In this document: positions 20,276-29,866 of the stretch, one piece after another
How the letters are laid out: every line of letters begins with the position of its first letter
Position numbering within the stretch: the stretch's first letter is position 1
Source of the DNA: Escherichia coli O157:H7
GTDB lineage: Bacteria > Pseudomonadota > Gammaproteobacteria > Enterobacterales > Enterobacteriaceae
Strand: one strand, 5' to 3'
NCBI RefSeq assembly: GCF_013167455.1
Contig: NZ_CP038328.1
Length of the DNA: 64,000 nt
Program-made: the position numbers and the translations under genes
The notes under the pieces: generated by a model
What the model was told of the DNA's origin: nothing
Databases searched by the model: none
What the model saw: the letters and a program-made list of their open reading frames with translations, nothing else

Positions 20276-20292
20276 TTTGGTCGGCACGAGAG
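20276..20292. repeat. attL: 17-bp direct repeat TTTGGTCGGCACGAGAG, a copy of the tRNA-Pro 3' end
   Basis: Identical 17-mer at 29850-29866 overlapping the tRNA-Pro 3' end. Confidence 0.85.
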
Positions 20293-20353
20293 TAGTTTAA
20301 TTGAGTATGTAACTACATGATTTTAAATAATATGCTTGATTCAACTTTTAAAC

Positions 20354-20377
20354 CGTATAACTAAACGTATAACTAAA
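20354..20377 (+). repeat. Two tandem CGTATAACTAAA motifs at left end (candidate integrase arm-type sites)
   Basis: Same 12-mer present four times near the right end (29665-29720). Confidence 0.5.
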
Positions 20378-20559
20378 ATCATTTGCTGAAAAAGTGTACA
20401 ATTTAAATGCGAGTTTTCCTGTGGTAAAAGCTCCAACCGTAACGATGTTCGTTATGGTTGCCTTGATGGTCTGCGTGGTCATTATGACCATTCAGGATTT
20501 GAAGGGTGACGCTTCCGACTTCCTCAAATTGAGGTTTCCGAAAATATCAGCGGGTTAGG

Positions 20560-20860
20560 CCAGAGTGCAAATTTGCACTCTGGAACAATTCCAACCAGTA
20601 ATCAGCGCAATTTTGCGCTTTGCTTTAAGTTCAGCGAGTAACCGAAGGCGGAATTACGCCCTCGGTACTCACATATGAGAAACGATATTTCTTCCACCGA
20701 TACCCTTTATTTGGGTATCGCGAGTAAGCCCCAAAATCTGGGTGTTACTCTTACTACCCAAACTACGGGTATTTTCCGTAATTTCATGGTCGAGTTGCAG
20801 ATCTGCAACTCACCCACCAGCCAACGCAATTTTGCGCTTTGCTTTAAGTTCAACCAGTTA
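20560..20860. other. Hairpin-dense non-coding left arm of island with duplicated composite element
   Basis: Perfect 24-bp palindrome CCAGAGTGCAAATTTGCACTCTGG (20561-20584); GAGTTGCAGATCTGCAACTC (20791-20810); near-identical direct repeats containing GCGCAATTTTGCGCTTTGCTTTAAGTTCA (20605-20633 and 20826-20853); further hairpins at 20641-20666 and 20698-20718; no ORF with RBS. Confidence 0.6.
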
Positions 20861-21139
20861 CCGCCGTAACCGCTCCGGCTTCTTCCAGTGGTACGTAATT
20901 TTTGCTTTTTCCCTGTACGTCTGCACGCGGCGACGGTAGGCCAGCATTTCAAGAACGCGGATCCGTATGTTGCGCATATCAACGCCATTAAGTTCTATAC
21001 CATCACGGCGCATCACCTCAGCAACCACACGCGCGTAATTTTCGGCGGTCACGCTGTACGGCTGCGCGGTTTTTTCGTCAGCCTGCTGGCTGATTCCGGC
21101 GACGCGGCGGATTAATCCCAGTATTTCGGCTTCTGTCAT
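20858..21139 (-). CDS. Hypothetical 93-aa protein, last gene of island packaging/capsid operon
   Basis: ORF with RBS AGGTGGAG 41 nt downstream of the capsid-like gene stop; no recognisable motif. Confidence 0.5.
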   Translation of the reverse strand: MTEAEILGLIRRVAGISQQADEKTAQPYSVTAENYARVVAEVMRRDGIELNGVDMRNIRIRVLEMLAYRRRVQTYREKAKITYHWKKPERLRR

Positions 21140-21180
21140 TTCTCCACCTGGTCAGCTATTAAACTGCGAAAATTTCGTAA

Positions 21181-22149
21181 TTATCCCGATACGGGGATCA
21201 CCATATCGGGATTGATGCCGGAAAAATCAGCTTTCGCCAGAACGGTGACGGCCTTATCGAGTTTTTGCCATCCGCAATAGGTGATTGCCCTGAACGCTGT
21301 AGCGTCATTCTGGAAAAGGCTAACCGCCCCTGATTCGGTTTTTATTACCGCCTCATCAGTTGGGGTTATAACCGTGGCTTCAACGTTAATAATCAGCTTT
21401 TGAGCGTCTATCAGCATCATGCGATCCGCCTGTTCGCTCACAATTACCGGTATTCTCAAAAGCTCTATCTGCCAGAACTCAGCATCAGTAAGCTGTAATG
21501 CGTTTTCTACGGGCAAGATTAGCGACGACGTGGAAAGCGTGTTACCGTTCGCTATGTGCTTTTTGAAAAGCTCTATGAAGTTTTCGGCCTCATCAGCACC
21601 ATTAAGCACGCCCTCAGGGGATACGCCAGCCACCTCCTGATCACTGGAAAGAAATTTTTTATCTATTTCTTTCACCGATTCCGATGTGATCAAGTCTCTG
21701 ATCGCTGAATTGGTGCCAGGGGTGCTAAATTTGATTAGCTCGTTATTCAGCATCACAATAGCGCCAAGTTTGCACAGTTTTAGCGCGCTTTCGTTTACTT
21801 CTCCCTCTTTGACAGGGATTTCTTCTGCTTCTTTAAGCCATTTACTACCCTTGCCTGATATTGACTGCAATTTTGCGCCAAACGGAAGATTAAGCGCGCT
21901 GCTGATTAGCTTGCCTGGTACAGACTGCGAAAAAATATATTCTCCAAGCTCTCTTACTATCGGCTCTGCCACCAGCGACGGCATATTATCCGTAGTCATT
22001 CCGGCAATAATGGATTTTTCAAGAAATTTCGATACTGCCGGATCATTTCTTTTCGTCATCTCTATAGCGTCTGCATGGCTGAATTTACACGATGTAAGCA
22101 CGCTGGCGGCGCGAACTGCCGAAACGCCTTTCATGTTTTTAGAAATCAT
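21181..22149 (-). CDS. Putative HK97-fold major capsid protein-like
   Basis: ~322 aa; segments GKGSKWLKEAEEIPVKEGEVNESALKLCKLGAIVMLNNELIKFS and EGVLNGADEAENF resemble conserved Phage_capsid (HK97 family) motifs from memory; start taken at second ATG (9 nt after GGAGG). Confidence 0.5.
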   Translation of the reverse strand: MISKNMKGVSAVRAASVLTSCKFSHADAIEMTKRNDPAVSKFLEKSIIAGMTTDNMPSLVAEPIVRELGEYIFSQSVPGKLISSALNLPFGAKLQSISGKGSKWLKEAEEIPVKEGEVNESALKLCKLGAIVMLNNELIKFSTPGTNSAIRDLITSESVKEIDKKFLSSDQEVAGVSPEGVLNGADEAENFIELFKKHIANGNTLSTSSLILPVENALQLTDAEFWQIELLRIPVIVSEQADRMMLIDAQKLIINVEATVITPTDEAVIKTESGAVSLFQNDATAFRAITYCGWQKLDKAVTVLAKADFSGINPDMVIPVSG

Positions 22150-22300
22150 CTTCTTCATCCTCCTGGAAGCACGGGTTTAGTGTTTCGTGAAAATATGGCA
22201 TCAGAACAGCGGCGGCCTGTAACCGTATTTCGGTCGGCTGCTGCTTGTCGTTCATGATTTCCGTGAGTACATCAATAGGGTCTGTGATGTATTCGCTCAT
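22139..22300 (-). CDS. Small acidic protein (53 aa) between terS-like and capsid-like genes; below ORF-track threshold
   Basis: ATG with GAGGT RBS 11 nt after terS stop; MSEYITDPIDVLTEIMNDKQQ...EDEEDDF; overlaps capsid-like gene start. Confidence 0.4.
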   Translation of the reverse strand: MSEYITDPIDVLTEIMNDKQQPTEIRLQAAAVLMPYFHETLNPCFQEDEEDDF

Positions 22301-28314: not shown

Positions 28315-28391
28315 GGCCTTGTCGTTAAATTTGATGCAATTATACGACGGTTTTACATGGTTTTCGTAGTTTTTACTGGTTTTCTGTACAG

Positions 28392-29633
28392 CTACACGGC
28401 TCGGATACCCCTTTTACCACTGGCGAGGGTTACGCCCGTCGCCGCGGCCTCGACAAATTCGCCCCACCAGCGCATCAGCACGATGCGTTTTTCTATGTAG
28501 TTGCTCCGGTTGTATGCCCGTCTAACTTCGTTGGTGTCGACGTGGGCAAGTGCCGCCTCTATTACGTCCGGCTCGAATCCTTCCTCGTTCGCTGCTGTGC
28601 TGAATATGGCGCGTAATCCATGAGACACCAGCACGCCAGCGAATCCCATACGCCGCAATGCTGCGTTAGCTGTCTGGCTGTTCATCGGCTGCTGTGGGTC
28701 TTTCAGACTTGGGAAAACGTAATTGCGGTGGTGGCTGATTGGTTTCATGGCCTCCAGCACCGCCATAGCCTGACCGGAAAGCGGGATAACGTGATCCCTG
28801 CGCATCTTCATGCGTCCGGCAGGTATCGTCCATTGCTTCGCGTCCAGGTTGATTTCATCCCACCGCGTTGATGACGCTTCGGCGGGACGGGTTACGGTCA
28901 GTAACTGCCATTCAATCAGTAATCTGGTCTGCCGTTCTGTTGCCGATACTGATAAAGCCTGCATAAGCTCGGGCAGCTGTTCGGGGCGGATTGTTGGCAT
29001 ATGTTTTTTTACAGGTGAGGGAAACGCCTTACGCACATTCATAGCCGGATTGGCATCAATCAGCCCACTGTTGGCGGCGTAATCCATTACCTCATTAACG
29101 CGCTGTAAAACCCGCTTGAGTGTTTCCAGGTTGCCGCGCTCCTTGATGGGGGTAAGCACTTCAACGAACCTTCGGGCGGTGAGGGTATCTATTGGCGTGT
29201 TGCCGATGAACGGGAATACATATTTATCCAGCGAACGCCAGATGTCTTTAATCGTGTTGGGGGCCAGATTCTGGCTGATTTTCACCTGGTACCATGCCGC
29301 CGCCACATTTTCGAACGTGTTCCCTTGTCTTCGGGCCTCTGTCTCTCTTTTTTGCCTCTCGTGGTCCTGCGGGTCAGTTCCGGCACTGATTAACGTCCTG
29401 TACTCGCTACGGCGTTTTCTGGCATCAGCCAGGGAAACATCTTCAAGCGATCCAAAACTCAGCAATATTCTTTTTTTGTCCGATGGTCGGTAGTAGGAAA
29501 ATCTCCAGAGTTTTGATCCAGACGGTTTGACCAGGAGAAAAAGCCCTCCGCCGTCCTGCAGGGTGTACTCCTTTTGCGCTGGTCTGGCTGCTTTGATCTG
29601 CACTGTGGTTAATGGGTGTGTTTTTCTCGCCAT
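28392..29633 (-). CDS. int: Tyrosine recombinase, P4-family integrase
   Basis: ~413 aa from MARKTHPLT; N-terminal DGGGLFLLVKPSGSKLWRF arm-binding-like domain; catalytic HGLR and RAYNRSNY(Y) motifs; adjacent to tRNA. Confidence 0.9.
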   Translation of the reverse strand: MARKTHPLTTVQIKAARPAQKEYTLQDGGGLFLLVKPSGSKLWRFSYYRPSDKKRILLSFGSLEDVSLADARKRRSEYRTLISAGTDPQDHERQKRETEARRQGNTFENVAAAWYQVKISQNLAPNTIKDIWRSLDKYVFPFIGNTPIDTLTARRFVEVLTPIKERGNLETLKRVLQRVNEVMDYAANSGLIDANPAMNVRKAFPSPVKKHMPTIRPEQLPELMQALSVSATERQTRLLIEWQLLTVTRPAEASSTRWDEINLDAKQWTIPAGRMKMRRDHVIPLSGQAMAVLEAMKPISHHRNYVFPSLKDPQQPMNSQTANAALRRMGFAGVLVSHGLRAIFSTAANEEGFEPDVIEAALAHVDTNEVRRAYNRSNYIEKRIVLMRWWGEFVEAAATGVTLASGKRGIRAV

Positions 29634-29664
29634 ATGTCTATGATTCCACACGAAAAAACAGGGT

Positions 29665-29720
29665 TTTAGTTATACGGCTTTAGTTATACGCCAGCCCGTA
29701 TAACTAAACGTATAACTAAA
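29665..29720. repeat. Four CGTATAACTAAA motifs (two inverted, two direct): candidate integrase arm-type sites
   Basis: Read from sequence; matches the two left-end copies at 20354-20377. Confidence 0.5.
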
Positions 29721-29742
29721 AAATCCGGCTGATAGCTTATAA

Positions 29743-29844
29743 ATCCGGTGATGTTCGGTGACTAAAAAACATAAAAAAACCCGCCAATCAAGTGATTAGC
29801 GGGTTATCCCTGTCTTATCCGGTGCTTTCCGGTGATATCCGGTG
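29743..29844. promoter_or_regulatory. Cluster of (A/T)TCCGGTG repeats in the int upstream region next to the att core
   Basis: About five copies at 29743, 29754 (variant), 29817, 29828 and 29837. Confidence 0.4.
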
Positions 29845-29849
29845 GGCGA

Positions 29850-29866
29850 TTTGGTCGGCACGAGAG
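29850..29866. repeat. attR core: 17-bp direct repeat overlapping tRNA-Pro 3' end
   Basis: Identical to 20276-20292. Confidence 0.85.

Follow-up and report, generated by a model that had tools for sequence, protein, structure and literature searches.

What occupies the proL site between yejO and yejM in this O157:H7 chromosome? In the window (the whole 64-kb stretch of DNA analysed), the tRNA-Pro gene adjoins a block of phage-like genes, which a preliminary description, made from the sequence, read as a PICI-like satellite of an undescribed or reduced type. The first part of that reading holds and the second does not: the element belongs, as an ordinary member, to the E. coli PICI family already catalogued and does not represent a new type of satellite. 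Taken as a whole, with life cycle and helpers included, our best explanation is very probably correct: a Gram-negative PICI of 'Type A' (int, alpA, pri-ori, terS, capsid homologue) and a mosaic sibling of EcCI11128.

Insertion at proL

The island measures 9,574 bp from repeat to repeat and is bounded by two exact 17-bp copies of the proL 3' end, TTTGGTCGGCACGAGAG, at 20276-20292 and 29850-29866. Its ends carry the following features:

20276-20292, no strand: distal att repeat, which is attL as the window is oriented; a displaced 17-bp 3' end of proL and exact copy of 29850-29866
20353-20378, + strand: distal arm, with two CGTATAACTA units in tandem as candidate arm-type integrase sites; a 26-bp perfect repeat with 29696-29721
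20592-20863, no strand: a pair of 53-nt direct repeats, at 20592-20644 and 20811-20863, that share 83% identity and contain palindromes
29667-29721, no strand: int-proximal arm, with two inverted and two direct CGTATAACTA units (four in all) as candidate arm-type Int sites
29850-29928, - strand: proximal att repeat (29850-29866), within the intact tRNA-Pro(GGG) gene proL (29852-29928)

The window has six CGTATAACTA copies (0.06 expected), each of them at an island end, the motif being a variant of the published yejM-PICI 'att site core' (Fillol-Salom et al. 2018, PMC6092414, Table S1). DNA homologous to the 53-nt repeat region is found at the distal end of EcCICFT073.

An empty site was rebuilt by joining 19776-20275 to 29850-30349, and was counted as contiguous when at least 80% of it was covered in one place. 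Among 5,426 complete E. coli genomes, 3,784 have such a contiguous site, and several O157:H7 strains, with the annotation yejO, tRNA-Pro, yejM, match it at 100% identity; the island flanks are also 100% identical to O157:H7 genomes with an empty proL site. Since the empty-site junction matches in other genomes, the island boundaries are exact and the repeat is not due to chance. This comparison, proposed in the preliminary description, bears out its claims of a 17-bp repeat at both borders and of an interrupted yejO-proL-yejM order. Judged from sequence, a genuine phage satellite has been inserted with precision at the tRNA-Pro gene; its GC content is 47.6% against 51.6% in the flanks.

Integration, early regulation and replication

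The int-proximal part of the island is organized as follows:

28392-29633, - strand: P4-type tyrosine integrase, 413 aa (NF007246, 552 bits; Pfam Arm-DNA-bind_3, Phage_int_M and Phage_integrase)
28063-28293, - strand: orf76, small and conserved, downstream of int (identity to related islands, 96-100%)
27689-27895, - strand: AlpA-type activator/excisionase (PHROG excisionase/regulator, E 2.5e-6; Pfam Phage_AlpA, i-E 0.0034)
27352-27540, + strand: orf62, divergent pair partner of the YlcI/YnfO-family gene
27130-27309, + strand: YlcI/YnfO-family (DUF3950) protein (NF041551, 60.6 bits, cut-off 30)
27029-27108, - strand: early promoter TTGACG-17-TAATAT (27068-27040), overlapped by three GTGGCTGACA candidate operator repeats
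26730-26806, - strand: isrK/seqA-type element with terminator, an immunity RNA (Rfam isrK, 66 bits, gathering 50)
26621-26708, - strand: C4/CI-type antisense RNA, an immunity RNA (Rfam C4, 77.6 bits, gathering 45)
26378-26566, - strand: Icd-like early-operon gene (NF033153, 57 bits, cut-off 25)
26065-26385, - strand: orf106, early operon
25759-26058, - strand: DUF4222 gene, early operon
23945-25762/25777, - strand: primase-replicase (Pri), 605-610 aa (phrog_864 DNA primase, E 4e-194)
23709-23931, no strand: predicted replication origin immediately 3' of pri, with ten GGTGAACAG iterons whose two sets flank an AT-rich stretch
23418-23657, - strand: orf79 (phrog_1231, E 4e-47)
23382-23399, - strand: terminator-like hairpin after orf79, between the replication and late modules (terminator scan)

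The domain architecture of the integrase agrees with the P4-family enzyme previously proposed next to the tRNA gene, and the terminator scan placed another terminator-like hairpin after orf76 (28032-28055). The assignment of AlpA also stands: its profile-level family matches are weak (Pfam i-E 0.0034), but it is 87-99% identical to AlpA of catalogued PICIs, with 99% to that of a 07_3636-type island. The small regulator with a triple operator had to be amended in part. Three exact GTGGCTGACA copies are indeed present at 27029-27108, against 0.13 expected in the window, while the regulator belongs to the YlcI/YnfO (DUF3950) family, with its gene most likely starting at 27130.

Upstream of icd and pri is the pair of immunity RNAs, CI/C4 and seqA/isrK; in Gram-negative PICIs, relatives of CI and seqA are reportedly picked up by the Rfam C4 and isrK models (PMC10111431). 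Assignment of the small early-operon genes (25759-26566) also drew on phrog_285 and on the RefSeq annotation of relatives. In Pri, the TIGR01613 P4-family primase C-terminal domain scores 97.5 bits, under the 108.7 cut-off. The primase followed by an iteron origin was recovered as first described, and this arrangement matches the ori organisation described for Gram-negative PICIs (PMC6092414).

Late operon, packaging and helpers

The late operon contains the genes and sites relevant to DNA packaging:

23093-23287, - strand: orf64, among the first genes of the late operon, 98-100% identical in EcCI11128
22928-23089, - strand: orf53a, likewise among the first genes, 98-100% identical in EcCI11128
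22870-22899, - strand: cos-like core CGATCGCCCTGGACACCGCCCCCCGTCTCA (29/30 match to the Stx2 phage 1717 DNA that precedes terS)
22874-22883, - strand: putative 10-nt cohesive end CGCCCCCCGT within the cos-like core
22571-22844, - strand: AAAGTTAC repeat array, candidate TerS recognition sites (cosB-like), two copies upstream of terS and four in its linker-coding part
22312-22800, - strand: small terminase subunit TerS, 162 aa (Pfam Terminase_2; phrog_641, E 3.6e-43)
22139-22300, - strand: orf53b, 53 aa, an ORF invariably placed between terS and the capsid homologue (phrog_641 positions 89-125, E 1.1e-6)
21181-22158, - strand: HK97-fold major-capsid-protein homologue, the 'capsid morphogenesis' component (Pfam Phage_capsid)
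20858-21139, - strand: orf93, conserved last gene of E. coli PICIs (phrog_1561, E 3.9e-54)

These matches confirm the TerS-like and capsid-like genes of the preliminary description. Family searches gave no informative match for orf64 and orf53a, and the match of orf53b to the TerS profile (phrog_641) is weak and limited to the C-terminal part. TerS is 45% identical to that of phage 1717, with both ends conserved (58-59%) and a different linker; sequence comparison detected no similarity to the Rpp protein of EcCICFT073-type PICIs. Six of the seven AAAGTTAC copies in the window lie in the array around terS (1.8 expected in the whole window), and in the helper-type phage the corresponding place is occupied by GTTAAC repeats.

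The 30-bp core, a single copy in the window, matches at 29 of 30 positions the cos region of lambdoid phages encoding an HNH endonuclease, including Stx-converting ones, and its phage 1717 counterpart occupies the equivalent position upstream of terS. In IMG/VR, 6 PICIs and at least 22 contigs of helper-type phages carry the exact 30-mer beside terS. For one helper-type phage, Stx1 phage Lys8385Vzw, the virion-derived record ends with GGACACCGCCCCCCCT and starts with CTCAC, and PhageTerm gave 3' cohesive ends CGCCCCCCCT (PMC7946995); this mapped end differs from that of the island at 1 of 10 positions.

It is also conceivable, although unlikely, that the same PICI uses headful (pac) packaging, starting at a pac site within or close to terS, with the 30-mer as a relic of helper gene capture. 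The TerS N-terminus belongs to Terminase_2, an SPP1/SF6-type family typical of headful phages, the AAAGTTAC array lies inside terS, where pac sites often occur, and PICI late genes have been proposed to be captured from helpers (Tommasini et al., PMC10111431). However, a helper-type phage with a 1717-kind TerS (46% identical to the island protein) has 3' cohesive ends mapped in the shared sequence, and the 30-mer is exactly conserved among PICIs despite diverged surrounding DNA.

We infer that the island is a cos-type satellite working like SaPIbov5. In the silent state, the early transcript from the operator-covered promoter would be terminated through the C4-type RNA, as in P4. A helper phage would turn on AlpA, an AlpA-dependent and helper-dependent induction having been experimentally shown for EcCICFT073. 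Int and AlpA would then excise the element, and Pri would replicate it from the iteron origin into concatemers. Island TerS may bind its private AAAGTTAC array and recruit the helper TerL (and HNH nuclease), which would cut at the cos core common to island and helper.

The capsid homologue was modelled by AlphaFold2 with a pLDDT of 87.8, and its structure matches HK97 folds at probability 1.0. Its alignment with the 656-aa protease-capsid fusion of Stx2 phage 1717 is confined to residues 302-649, the mature-capsid half, and its relatives are stand-alone proteins of ~320 aa as against fusions of 600-700 aa; by alignment, the island protein has no counterpart of the half of the helper fusion that holds the protease and scaffold. 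Without a scaffold and protease of its own, it may co-assemble with the fused helper protein, probably biasing assembly to satellite-sized heads at the helper's expense, like Ccm of SaPIbov5, which provides the precedent (PMC8569155). This size-redirection role is drawn by analogy, because deletion of the EcCICFT073 capsid gene, which is of a different, lambda-E type, altered neither interference nor transfer; EcCICFT073 DNA is packaged in full-size heads.

The helpers are most likely EHEC lambdoid prophages with 3' cohesive ends and an HNH endonuclease gene. Several such candidates carry stx1 or stx2. A helper-type cos-terS-terL module was found in 1,125 of the 5,426 genomes (median of 2 places per genome with any match), and together with the island module in two, FORC_028 and O121 WL1277.

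Placement among known satellites

The PICI core comprises an integrase, an AlpA/MerR/Stl regulator, a primase-replicase, a capsid-morphogenesis gene and terS, and 97% of elements with all five components ('Type A') are from E. coli (De Sousa et al. 2023, PMC10085698). All five are present in the island. A major capsid gene occurs in 21 of 29 reference Gram-negative PICIs (Tommasini et al. 2023, PMC10111431), and EcCI11128, EcCI11368.1, EcCIED1a.1 and EcCIATCC25922 are catalogued at yejM (Fillol-Salom et al. 2018, PMC6092414, Table S1). Against this background, it is highly unlikely that the island represents a reduced type, or one still undescribed, outside P4, classical PICIs and cf-PICIs, even though our literature search found no experimental paper on E. 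coli PICIs with TerS plus capsid homologue, this island included, and the exact mosaic is absent at ≥99% over full length from the 5,426 complete genomes. A near-identical IMG/VR contig (L008) also speaks against novelty (Int 100%, Pri 98%, TerS 99%, capsid homologue 98%). Profile searches of the island ORFs found no TerL, portal, protease, tail or lysis genes; PICIs differ from cf-PICIs and P4 in having no portal, protease, TerL or sid/psu/delta, and the absence of these genes here is no anomaly. The novelty reading rested on a mistaken picture of the gene content of classical Gram-negative PICIs.

A P4-like satellite of P2-type helpers with its sid-delta-psu module swapped out is scarcely probable. 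The P4-type integrase, AlpA/Vis-like protein, P4-family primase domain, Icd-like gene and CI/C4-type RNA would fit it, but int, alpA and primase occur in PICIs as well as in P4-like elements and cannot tell the two apart (PMC10085698). Profile searches gave no psu, delta or sid match among the island ORFs, the Ash/epsilon region is only a pseudogene annotation over RNA genes in relatives, and TerS, capsid homologue and cos core point to HK97-like lambdoid phages, not P2. Hardly credible, too, is a defective prophage remnant, no longer mobile: terS and the capsid gene do stand isolated from the rest of a virion module, but 16 of 16 genes are intact, both att repeats are perfect, the O157:H7 backbone has relatives with an empty site, the architecture is conserved across genera, and the modules form mosaics with those of other PICIs, implying that exchange continues.

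Beyond E. coli, the triad of terS, a ~50-aa ORF and the capsid homologue is conserved in Serratia, Hafnia and one metagenome contig, at 45-47% identity and inside an int/AlpA/YlcI/primase-or-RepA layout in the two genera. The model PICI EcCICFT073 has an early module laid out like that of the island, including the YlcI/orf62 pair; identities are 100% for orf62, 85% for orf79, 85% (amino acid) for orf93, the last gene of EcCICFT073, 52% for YlcI and, over the full length, 47% for the experimentally validated Pri. EcCI11128 shares the yejM/proL site and the gene order, with amino acid identities of 95% for Int, 87% for AlpA, 96% for TerS and 98% for the capsid homologue.

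Insertion site and gene content

The window carries a single tRNA gene, tRNA-Pro(GGG), found with ARAGORN at 29852-29928 on the minus strand. The 17-mer TTTGGTCGGCACGAGAG is present at 20276-20292 and again at 29850-29866, which gives a repeat unit of 9,574 bp. The empty site was rebuilt by joining positions 19776-20275 to 29850-30349 and was searched against 5,426 complete E. coli genomes. This junction was contiguous in 3,784 of them and 100% identical in several O157:H7 strains, in which the annotation reads yejO / tRNA-Pro / yejM; the insertion is therefore precise. The preliminary description had proposed that direct repeats of the tRNA-Pro 3' end bracket the island, and the empty-site junctions of these related genomes agree with it.

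All six window copies of a further unit, CGTATAACTA, lie at the two ends of the island (20354-20375 and 29667-29718; 0.06 expected), which is the pattern of arm-type integrase sites, and these units are candidates for such a role. A variant of the island's 26-bp arm repeat is listed as the 'att site core' of the phage-inducible chromosomal islands (PICIs) at yejM in Table S1 of Fillol-Salom et al. 2018 (PMC6092414). The terminator-like hairpin directly downstream of the tRNA gene proL (29778-29805) belongs to the island; where the site is empty, its place is taken by the bidirectional yejO/proL hairpin (window 20238-20270). The neighboring yejO (17586-20177) is an intact ORF of 863 codons in the window and carries a pseudogene annotation, owing to an internal stop or a frameshift, in island-bearing O111 and 07_3636 genomes.

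Features of the island, starting from the integrase end (orf numbers denote small ORFs)
int end, minus strand: integrase, 413 aa, P4-type, with Arm-DNA-bind_3, Phage_int_M and Phage_integrase (NF007246, 552 bits)
After int, minus strand: orf76, then a terminator-like hairpin
Minus strand: AlpA (PHROG excisionase/regulator, E 2.5e-6; Pfam Phage_AlpA, full model, i-E only 0.0034)
Plus strand: divergent pair, YlcI/YnfO-family protein and orf62
Early promoter: TTGACG-17-TAATAT, consensus-like, overlapped by three exact GTGGCTGACA repeats (0.13 expected)
RNA genes: isrK (66 bits) and C4 (77.6 bits), Rfam
Minus strand: early small genes, namely Icd-like, orf106 and a DUF4222 protein
Minus strand: primase, 605-610 aa (phrog_864, E 4e-194)
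Directly 3' of pri: iteron origin, ten GGTGAACAG iterons that form two sets flanking an AT-rich core
After the iteron origin, minus strand: orf79, then a terminator-like hairpin
Minus strand: late operon, namely orf64, orf53a, TerS, orf53b, HK97-type capsid homologue and orf93

Transcription is mostly one-way, with 14 of the 16 genes on one strand. The integrase stands at one end beside a specific att site, which is that of catalogued PICIs, and AlpA is encoded near it; the profile matches of AlpA are weak, and the protein is 87-99% identical to AlpA of catalogued PICIs. The primase-replicase is followed by the iteron origin, the small terminase subunit is recognized by Terminase_2 and phrog_641, and the capsid-morphogenesis component is a homologue with the HK97 fold. 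Profile matches thus bear out the satellite gene content first described (P4-type integrase, AlpA, primase with iteron origin, TerS and capsid homologue), and with the PICI core genes and the exact empty site in place, the identification of a phage-satellite or PICI-like island at tRNA-Pro stands. Searches of the 16 gene calls and two other ORFs against PHROGs, and of the 16 against NCBIfam, gave no convincing E-value for TerL, portal, protease, connector, tail or holin/lysis proteins, and PADLOC found no anti-phage defence match among ten small island proteins.

At the distal end, two 53-nt direct repeats within 20592-20863 each hold the palindrome AGCGCAAAATTGCGCT, with a further palindrome following each repeat, and the 13-mer GCGCTTTGCTTTA has a third copy at 23265-23277, at the start of the late operon; together, they may form a control site of that operon. 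Two tandem 20-bp repeats, AAACAGTTCCCACCGTTTTT and AAACGGTATACACCGTTTTT, at 27962-28001, just upstream of alpA, may be where AlpA acts to activate its own gene or where the inducer of the helper acts.

Classification, relatives and regulation

The PICI core consists of an integrase, an AlpA/MerR/Stl regulator, a primase-replicase, a capsid morphogenesis gene and terS; elements with all five components are termed 'Type A', with 97% in E. coli (de Sousa et al. 2023, PMC10085698). A major capsid gene is found in 21 of 29 reference Gram-negative PICIs (Tommasini et al. 2023, PMC10111431), and a capsid homologue is also encoded by the PICI EcCICFT073. The gene mix of the island is therefore the definition of this PICI type and not a departure from it. 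An own capsid gene without portal, protease, TerL or sid/psu/delta had earlier been taken to indicate an undescribed type; this proposal is rejected, as the combination equals the published five-component core. Moreover, four PICIs are already listed at yejM, namely EcCIATCC25922, EcCIED1a.1, EcCI11128 and EcCI11368.1 (Fillol-Salom et al. 2018, Table S1, PMC6092414), and EcCI11128 has the same layout. By these comparisons, the element is a recombinant within a PICI lineage that has already been catalogued, and it can be filed as a routine PICI. Its family, integration site, five-gene core, iteron origin and CI/seqA-type immunity RNAs are already in the literature; what is added here, the helper and cos inference, is incremental and testable.

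Three other assignments were weighed. A P4-like satellite would carry int, alpA and an alpha primase, all of which are present (TIGR01613 at 97.5 bits, below the cut-off of 108.7); these genes are common to P4-like satellites and PICIs and do not discriminate between them (PMC10085698). With regard to P4 epsilon/Ash, an 'ash family' pseudogene is annotated over the C4/isrK RNA region in relatives, and in the island an ORF of 210 codons over C4/isrK matches PHROG 'regulator' families, the same DNA also scoring as RNA genes. No island ORF matches psu, delta or sid, the capsid-hijack operon of P4-like satellites, and the packaging signals are lambdoid, which makes this assignment unlikely. A capsid-forming PICI (cf-PICI) is improbable as well, since none of its own TerL, portal, prohead protease or head-tail adaptor/connector genes was found in the island. 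A defective prophage is hardly to be expected, given intact genes, perfect att repeats and an empty site in relatives.

Same-site relatives in RefSeq, from O111, O26, O121 and other enterohaemorrhagic E. coli (EHEC) genomes, have an identical gene order. The int-to-icd region is 99.9% identical at the nucleotide level to a 07_3636-type island, the primase module is 97% identical to an O111:H11 88-19539-type island, and the late module is approximately 97-98% identical to both of these types and to EcCI11128; the island is thus a mosaic of known modules. An IMG/VR contig (L008) represents nearly the same element. Since none of the 5,426 complete genomes holds an exact copy (best match 90% coverage, 95% identity), we regard the island as a new recombinant of these modules, of which the late module, at a coverage of at least 80%, occurs in 175 genomes of that set.

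The island differs in GC content from the rest of the window (47.6% vs 51.6%) and sits in an O157:H7-type backbone, where the proL site is normally empty. This backbone (1-20275 and 29867-64000) is 100% identical to O157:H7 chromosomes over the tested stretches of 17.5 kb and 14 kb of flank, and the O157:H7 strains among the best matches have an empty proL site. The island modules are closest to non-O157 EHEC (O111, O26, O121), and the two observations together suggest a recent horizontal acquisition.

The triad of terS, an ORF of about 50 aa and the capsid homologue, within the int/AlpA/YlcI/replicase frame, is also present in Serratia aquatilis and Hafnia at 45-47% identity, and this conservation across genera argues for a long-lived, functional module. 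Around more distant relatives of the capsid homologue, on two short contigs (P0011 and P0014), a terS-sized ORF and the capsid homologue were seen, with or without the small ORF. A related PICI at 2570-10966 of the Hafnia sequence L043 (GCA_036640435.1) encodes a TerS of the Terminase_2 type, an ORF of 50 aa and a capsid homologue, together with a RepA-type (AAAA_25) replicase and an ORF6N/ANT (Bro-network) gene. Slightly more than 1 kb separates it from a Fis-domain gene (PF27465 Fis_N and HTH_8), close to the fis integration site described for PICIs by Tommasini et al. (PMC10111431). Three records deposited as phages of 18-24 kb, vB_EcoS-705R7 (ON470625.1), vB_EcoS-569R3 (ON470597.1) and vB_EcoS-783R2 (ON470626.1), encode a TerS 47% identical to that of the island; instead of phages, they might represent satellites or cf-PICIs that were isolated from virions.

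As read from sequence and homology, the island combines precise insertion in a tRNA gene with arm sites, a CI/seqA-type RNA pair before the early operon, an iteron origin and a late operon. Relatives of the CI and seqA immunity RNAs are detected by the Rfam C4 and isrK models in several PICIs (Tommasini et al. 2023, PMC10111431). They are not universal in this family: in our Rfam scan, neither model reached its gathering score in EcCI11128, EcCICFT073 or the O111:H11 island. In the quiescent state, by extension from P4, the transcript from the operator-covered promoter would end early through the C4-type RNA. When C4 was paired with the leader/icd start by RNAduplex, 1-11 of 300 shuffles reached the observed energy, and the predicted pairings were long and implausible. 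In EcCICFT073, AlpA-driven induction and replication from the iteron origin have been demonstrated by experiment (ori: PMC6092414). Extended to the island, those experiments imply that a helper phage would switch on alpA, AlpA would activate the island, Int would excise it and Pri would replicate it from the origin. The 210-codon ORF (26378-27010, minus strand) runs without interruption through isrK, C4 and the Icd-like gene, and the Icd start MATIPTLVHSQTAFLWRF recurs in its N-terminal part VNHIPHLVHTQTAFVWRF. The C4 RNA lies between duplicated CCTTGTACA segments, a layout that resembles seqA/seqC of P4.

Candidate packaging signals, capsid homologue and predicted helpers

The best E. coli phage relatives of both the island TerS and the capsid homologue belong to one group of lambdoid prophages, many of them Stx1- or Stx2-converting, which carry terS, terL, a fused protease-capsid gene and portal; in the Stx2 phage 1717, an HNH endonuclease gene is located just upstream of terS. 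The island TerS is 45% identical to that of phage 1717, with 58-59% in the N- and C-terminal thirds and an unrelated linker. The sequence CGATCGCCCTGGACACCGCCCCCCGTCTCA (22870-22899), single-copy in the 64-kb window and situated 70-100 bp upstream of the island terS, agrees at 29 of 30 positions with phage 1717 in the equivalent place. The virion-derived record of the Stx1 phage Lys8385Vzw ends in ...GGACACCGCCCCCCCT and starts with CTCAC..., and PhageTerm identified it as a cos phage with 3' cohesive ends CGCCCCCCCT (PMC7946995). Because the core is shared at 29/30 and the Lys8385Vzw ends fall in the same sequence, a helper-type cos core appears to be present in the island, with a putative cohesive end at 22874-22883 that matches the mapped Lys8385Vzw end at 9 of 10 positions. 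In sequence terms, the island thus carries the helper's cos site, as SaPIbov5 does. The exact 30-mer occurs in 30 IMG/VR contigs, including six PICIs of the island's family and at least 22 phages with a helper-type terS, about half of which also show terL, the fused protease-capsid gene and portal in the stretch examined.

Downstream of the cos core, the helper-type phage has GTTAAC repeats, whereas the island has AAAGTTAC repeats; of the seven copies in the window, six fall in a 274-bp stretch around terS, with 1.8 expected over the entire window. Headful packaging is a rival to a cos-type mechanism here. Under cos-type packaging, the simplest reading of the region is a shared cleavage site with putative private TerS recognition sites, an arrangement that would divert TerL and the HNH nuclease of the helper onto concatemers of the island. 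The AAAGTTAC repeats inside terS (22568-22605) double as codons for the KKVT motif that recurs in the TerS linker KPKKVTKKVTEKVT, so that the same bases would serve as coding sequence and as a candidate TerS binding array.

The 53-aa product of orf53b (22139-22300) weakly matches the C-terminal part of a TerS profile (PHROG, E 1.1e-6), and BLASTP gave no alignment with the island's own TerS; a 'TerS C-terminal mimic' is thus a lead and not a result. In Serratia, Hafnia and a metagenome contig, too, terS and the capsid homologue are separated by an ORF of about 50 aa. The orf53b product could be a packaging-interference factor.

The AlphaFold2 model of the capsid homologue (mean pLDDT 87.8) matches HK97-fold capsid proteins with a probability of 1.0, among them the entries for the SaPI1 capsid and the SaPIbov5 procapsid. 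The alignment of the homologue with the 656-aa protease-capsid fusion of phage 1717 (24% identity) is confined to residues 302-649 of that fusion, and the protease/scaffold half of the helper protein is missing from the homologue. Among 1.84 billion representative proteins searched, its close relatives are stand-alone proteins of about 320 aa, and the distant ones are C-terminal halves of 600-700-aa fusions. With no scaffold or protease of its own, the capsid homologue should depend on the helper's assembly machinery. The predicted fold and the domain truncation are compatible with entry into the shell and a change in head size, and a Ccm-like head-size redirection is plausible by analogy. The protein has 15 extra C-terminal residues, DFSGINPDMVIPVSG (21181-21225), relative to the 307-aa EcCI11128 protein, because homology between the islands breaks near 21158.

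From the shared cos core and the related TerS, the helpers are predicted to be 3'-cohesive-end lambdoid prophages, many with stx genes. The helper-type cos-terS-terL module was found in 1,125 of the 5,426 complete genomes; genomes with any match to it have a median of two such places and a maximum of eight, and it is co-resident with the island module in FORC_028 and O121 WL1277. The signs of helper-phage-dependent induction, packaging, high-frequency transfer and interference are indirect, namely the cos core and TerS related to helper-type phages, and backbone relatives with an empty site. We propose tentatively, as a possibility and not as the expected outcome, that the lineage of PICIs with TerS and capsid homologue is a dedicated parasite of the 3'-cohesive-end/HNH lambdoid prophages of EHEC, including Stx1- and Stx2-converting phages. 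Such a parasite would have retained the cos cleavage core of its helper and substituted its own AAAGTTAC array for the sites that TerS recognizes; a capsid paralogue lacking a scaffold and an ORF of about 50 aa resembling the TerS C-terminus would be further additions. If so, Stx-phage yield would be lowered, the island would be co-transferred with Stx phages, and the spread of toxin genes would be affected. Our literature search found no paper linking PICIs to Stx phages as helpers and no experimental study of this PICI sub-lineage. The helper prediction itself is of modest value, being concrete and testable for an experimentally unstudied sub-lineage, and its confirmation would make these satellites relevant to Stx-phage output and transfer in EHEC.

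Comparison with known systems

PmCI172 of Pasteurella multocida is, by description, a small Gram-negative PICI with a reported capsid-protein homologue and observed small capsids; it differs in its Mu-like myovirus helper and its host family. SaPIbov5 of S. aureus (PMC8569155) provides the working analogy: the cos site of its helpers, which are HNH-dependent cos phages, is present in it, and its Ccm, a homologue of capsid proteins with the HK97 fold, is built into the shell and alters the head size. It nevertheless belongs to an unrelated lineage with a Gram-positive host and an Stl-type repressor, and the similarity found is one of shared fold only. Satellite phage P4 resembles the island in its P4-type integrase, AlpA/Vis-like protein, P4-family primase domain, CI/C4-type RNA immunity and icd-like gene. 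In contrast to P4, the island is devoid of sid/delta/psu, and its packaging genes and cos-like core point to lambdoid helpers and not to P2.

EcCICFT073, the model Gram-negative PICI, shares with the island the order int, alpA, divergent ylcI pair, icd-like gene, small ORFs, DUF4222, pri, ori and late genes, with identities of 100% for orf62, 85% for orf79, 85% for orf93, 47% for Pri and 52% for YlcI. Its integrase (24% identity) and integration site differ from those of the island, and its late module comprises a lambda-E-type capsid gene, a decoration protein and RppA, without a terS of its own. RppA re-targets the TerS of the helpers, lambda and phi80, to the cosB of EcCICFT073; its capsid gene, of a different type, is dispensable, and the DNA is found in full-size heads. 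The only Rpp candidate tested in our island was its TerS, for which a PDB sequence search returned weak TerS N-domain matches and no RppC; the EcCICFT073 mechanism therefore does not apply. In contrast to Rpp-type PICIs, the island has a true TerS and a cos core of the 3'-cohesive-end type.

The yejM-site PICIs are the nearest systems. EcCI11368.1 occupies the same site and is known here from its Table S1 entry alone, and EcCI11128 (O111:H- 11128) was compared directly. EcCI11128 differs in having a RepA-type helicase as its replication module, in place of the island's primase, and an immunity region without C4 and isrK at the Rfam gathering score. Shared are the proL site by yejM, the att/arm repeat family, an identical cos-like 30-mer and the gene order, which in EcCI11128 runs int, small ORF, AlpA, YlcI pair, Icd-like, DUF4222, replicase, small ORFs, TerS, small ORF and capsid homologue. 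Identities between the two islands reach 95% for Int, 87% for AlpA, 96% for TerS and 98% for the capsid homologue.
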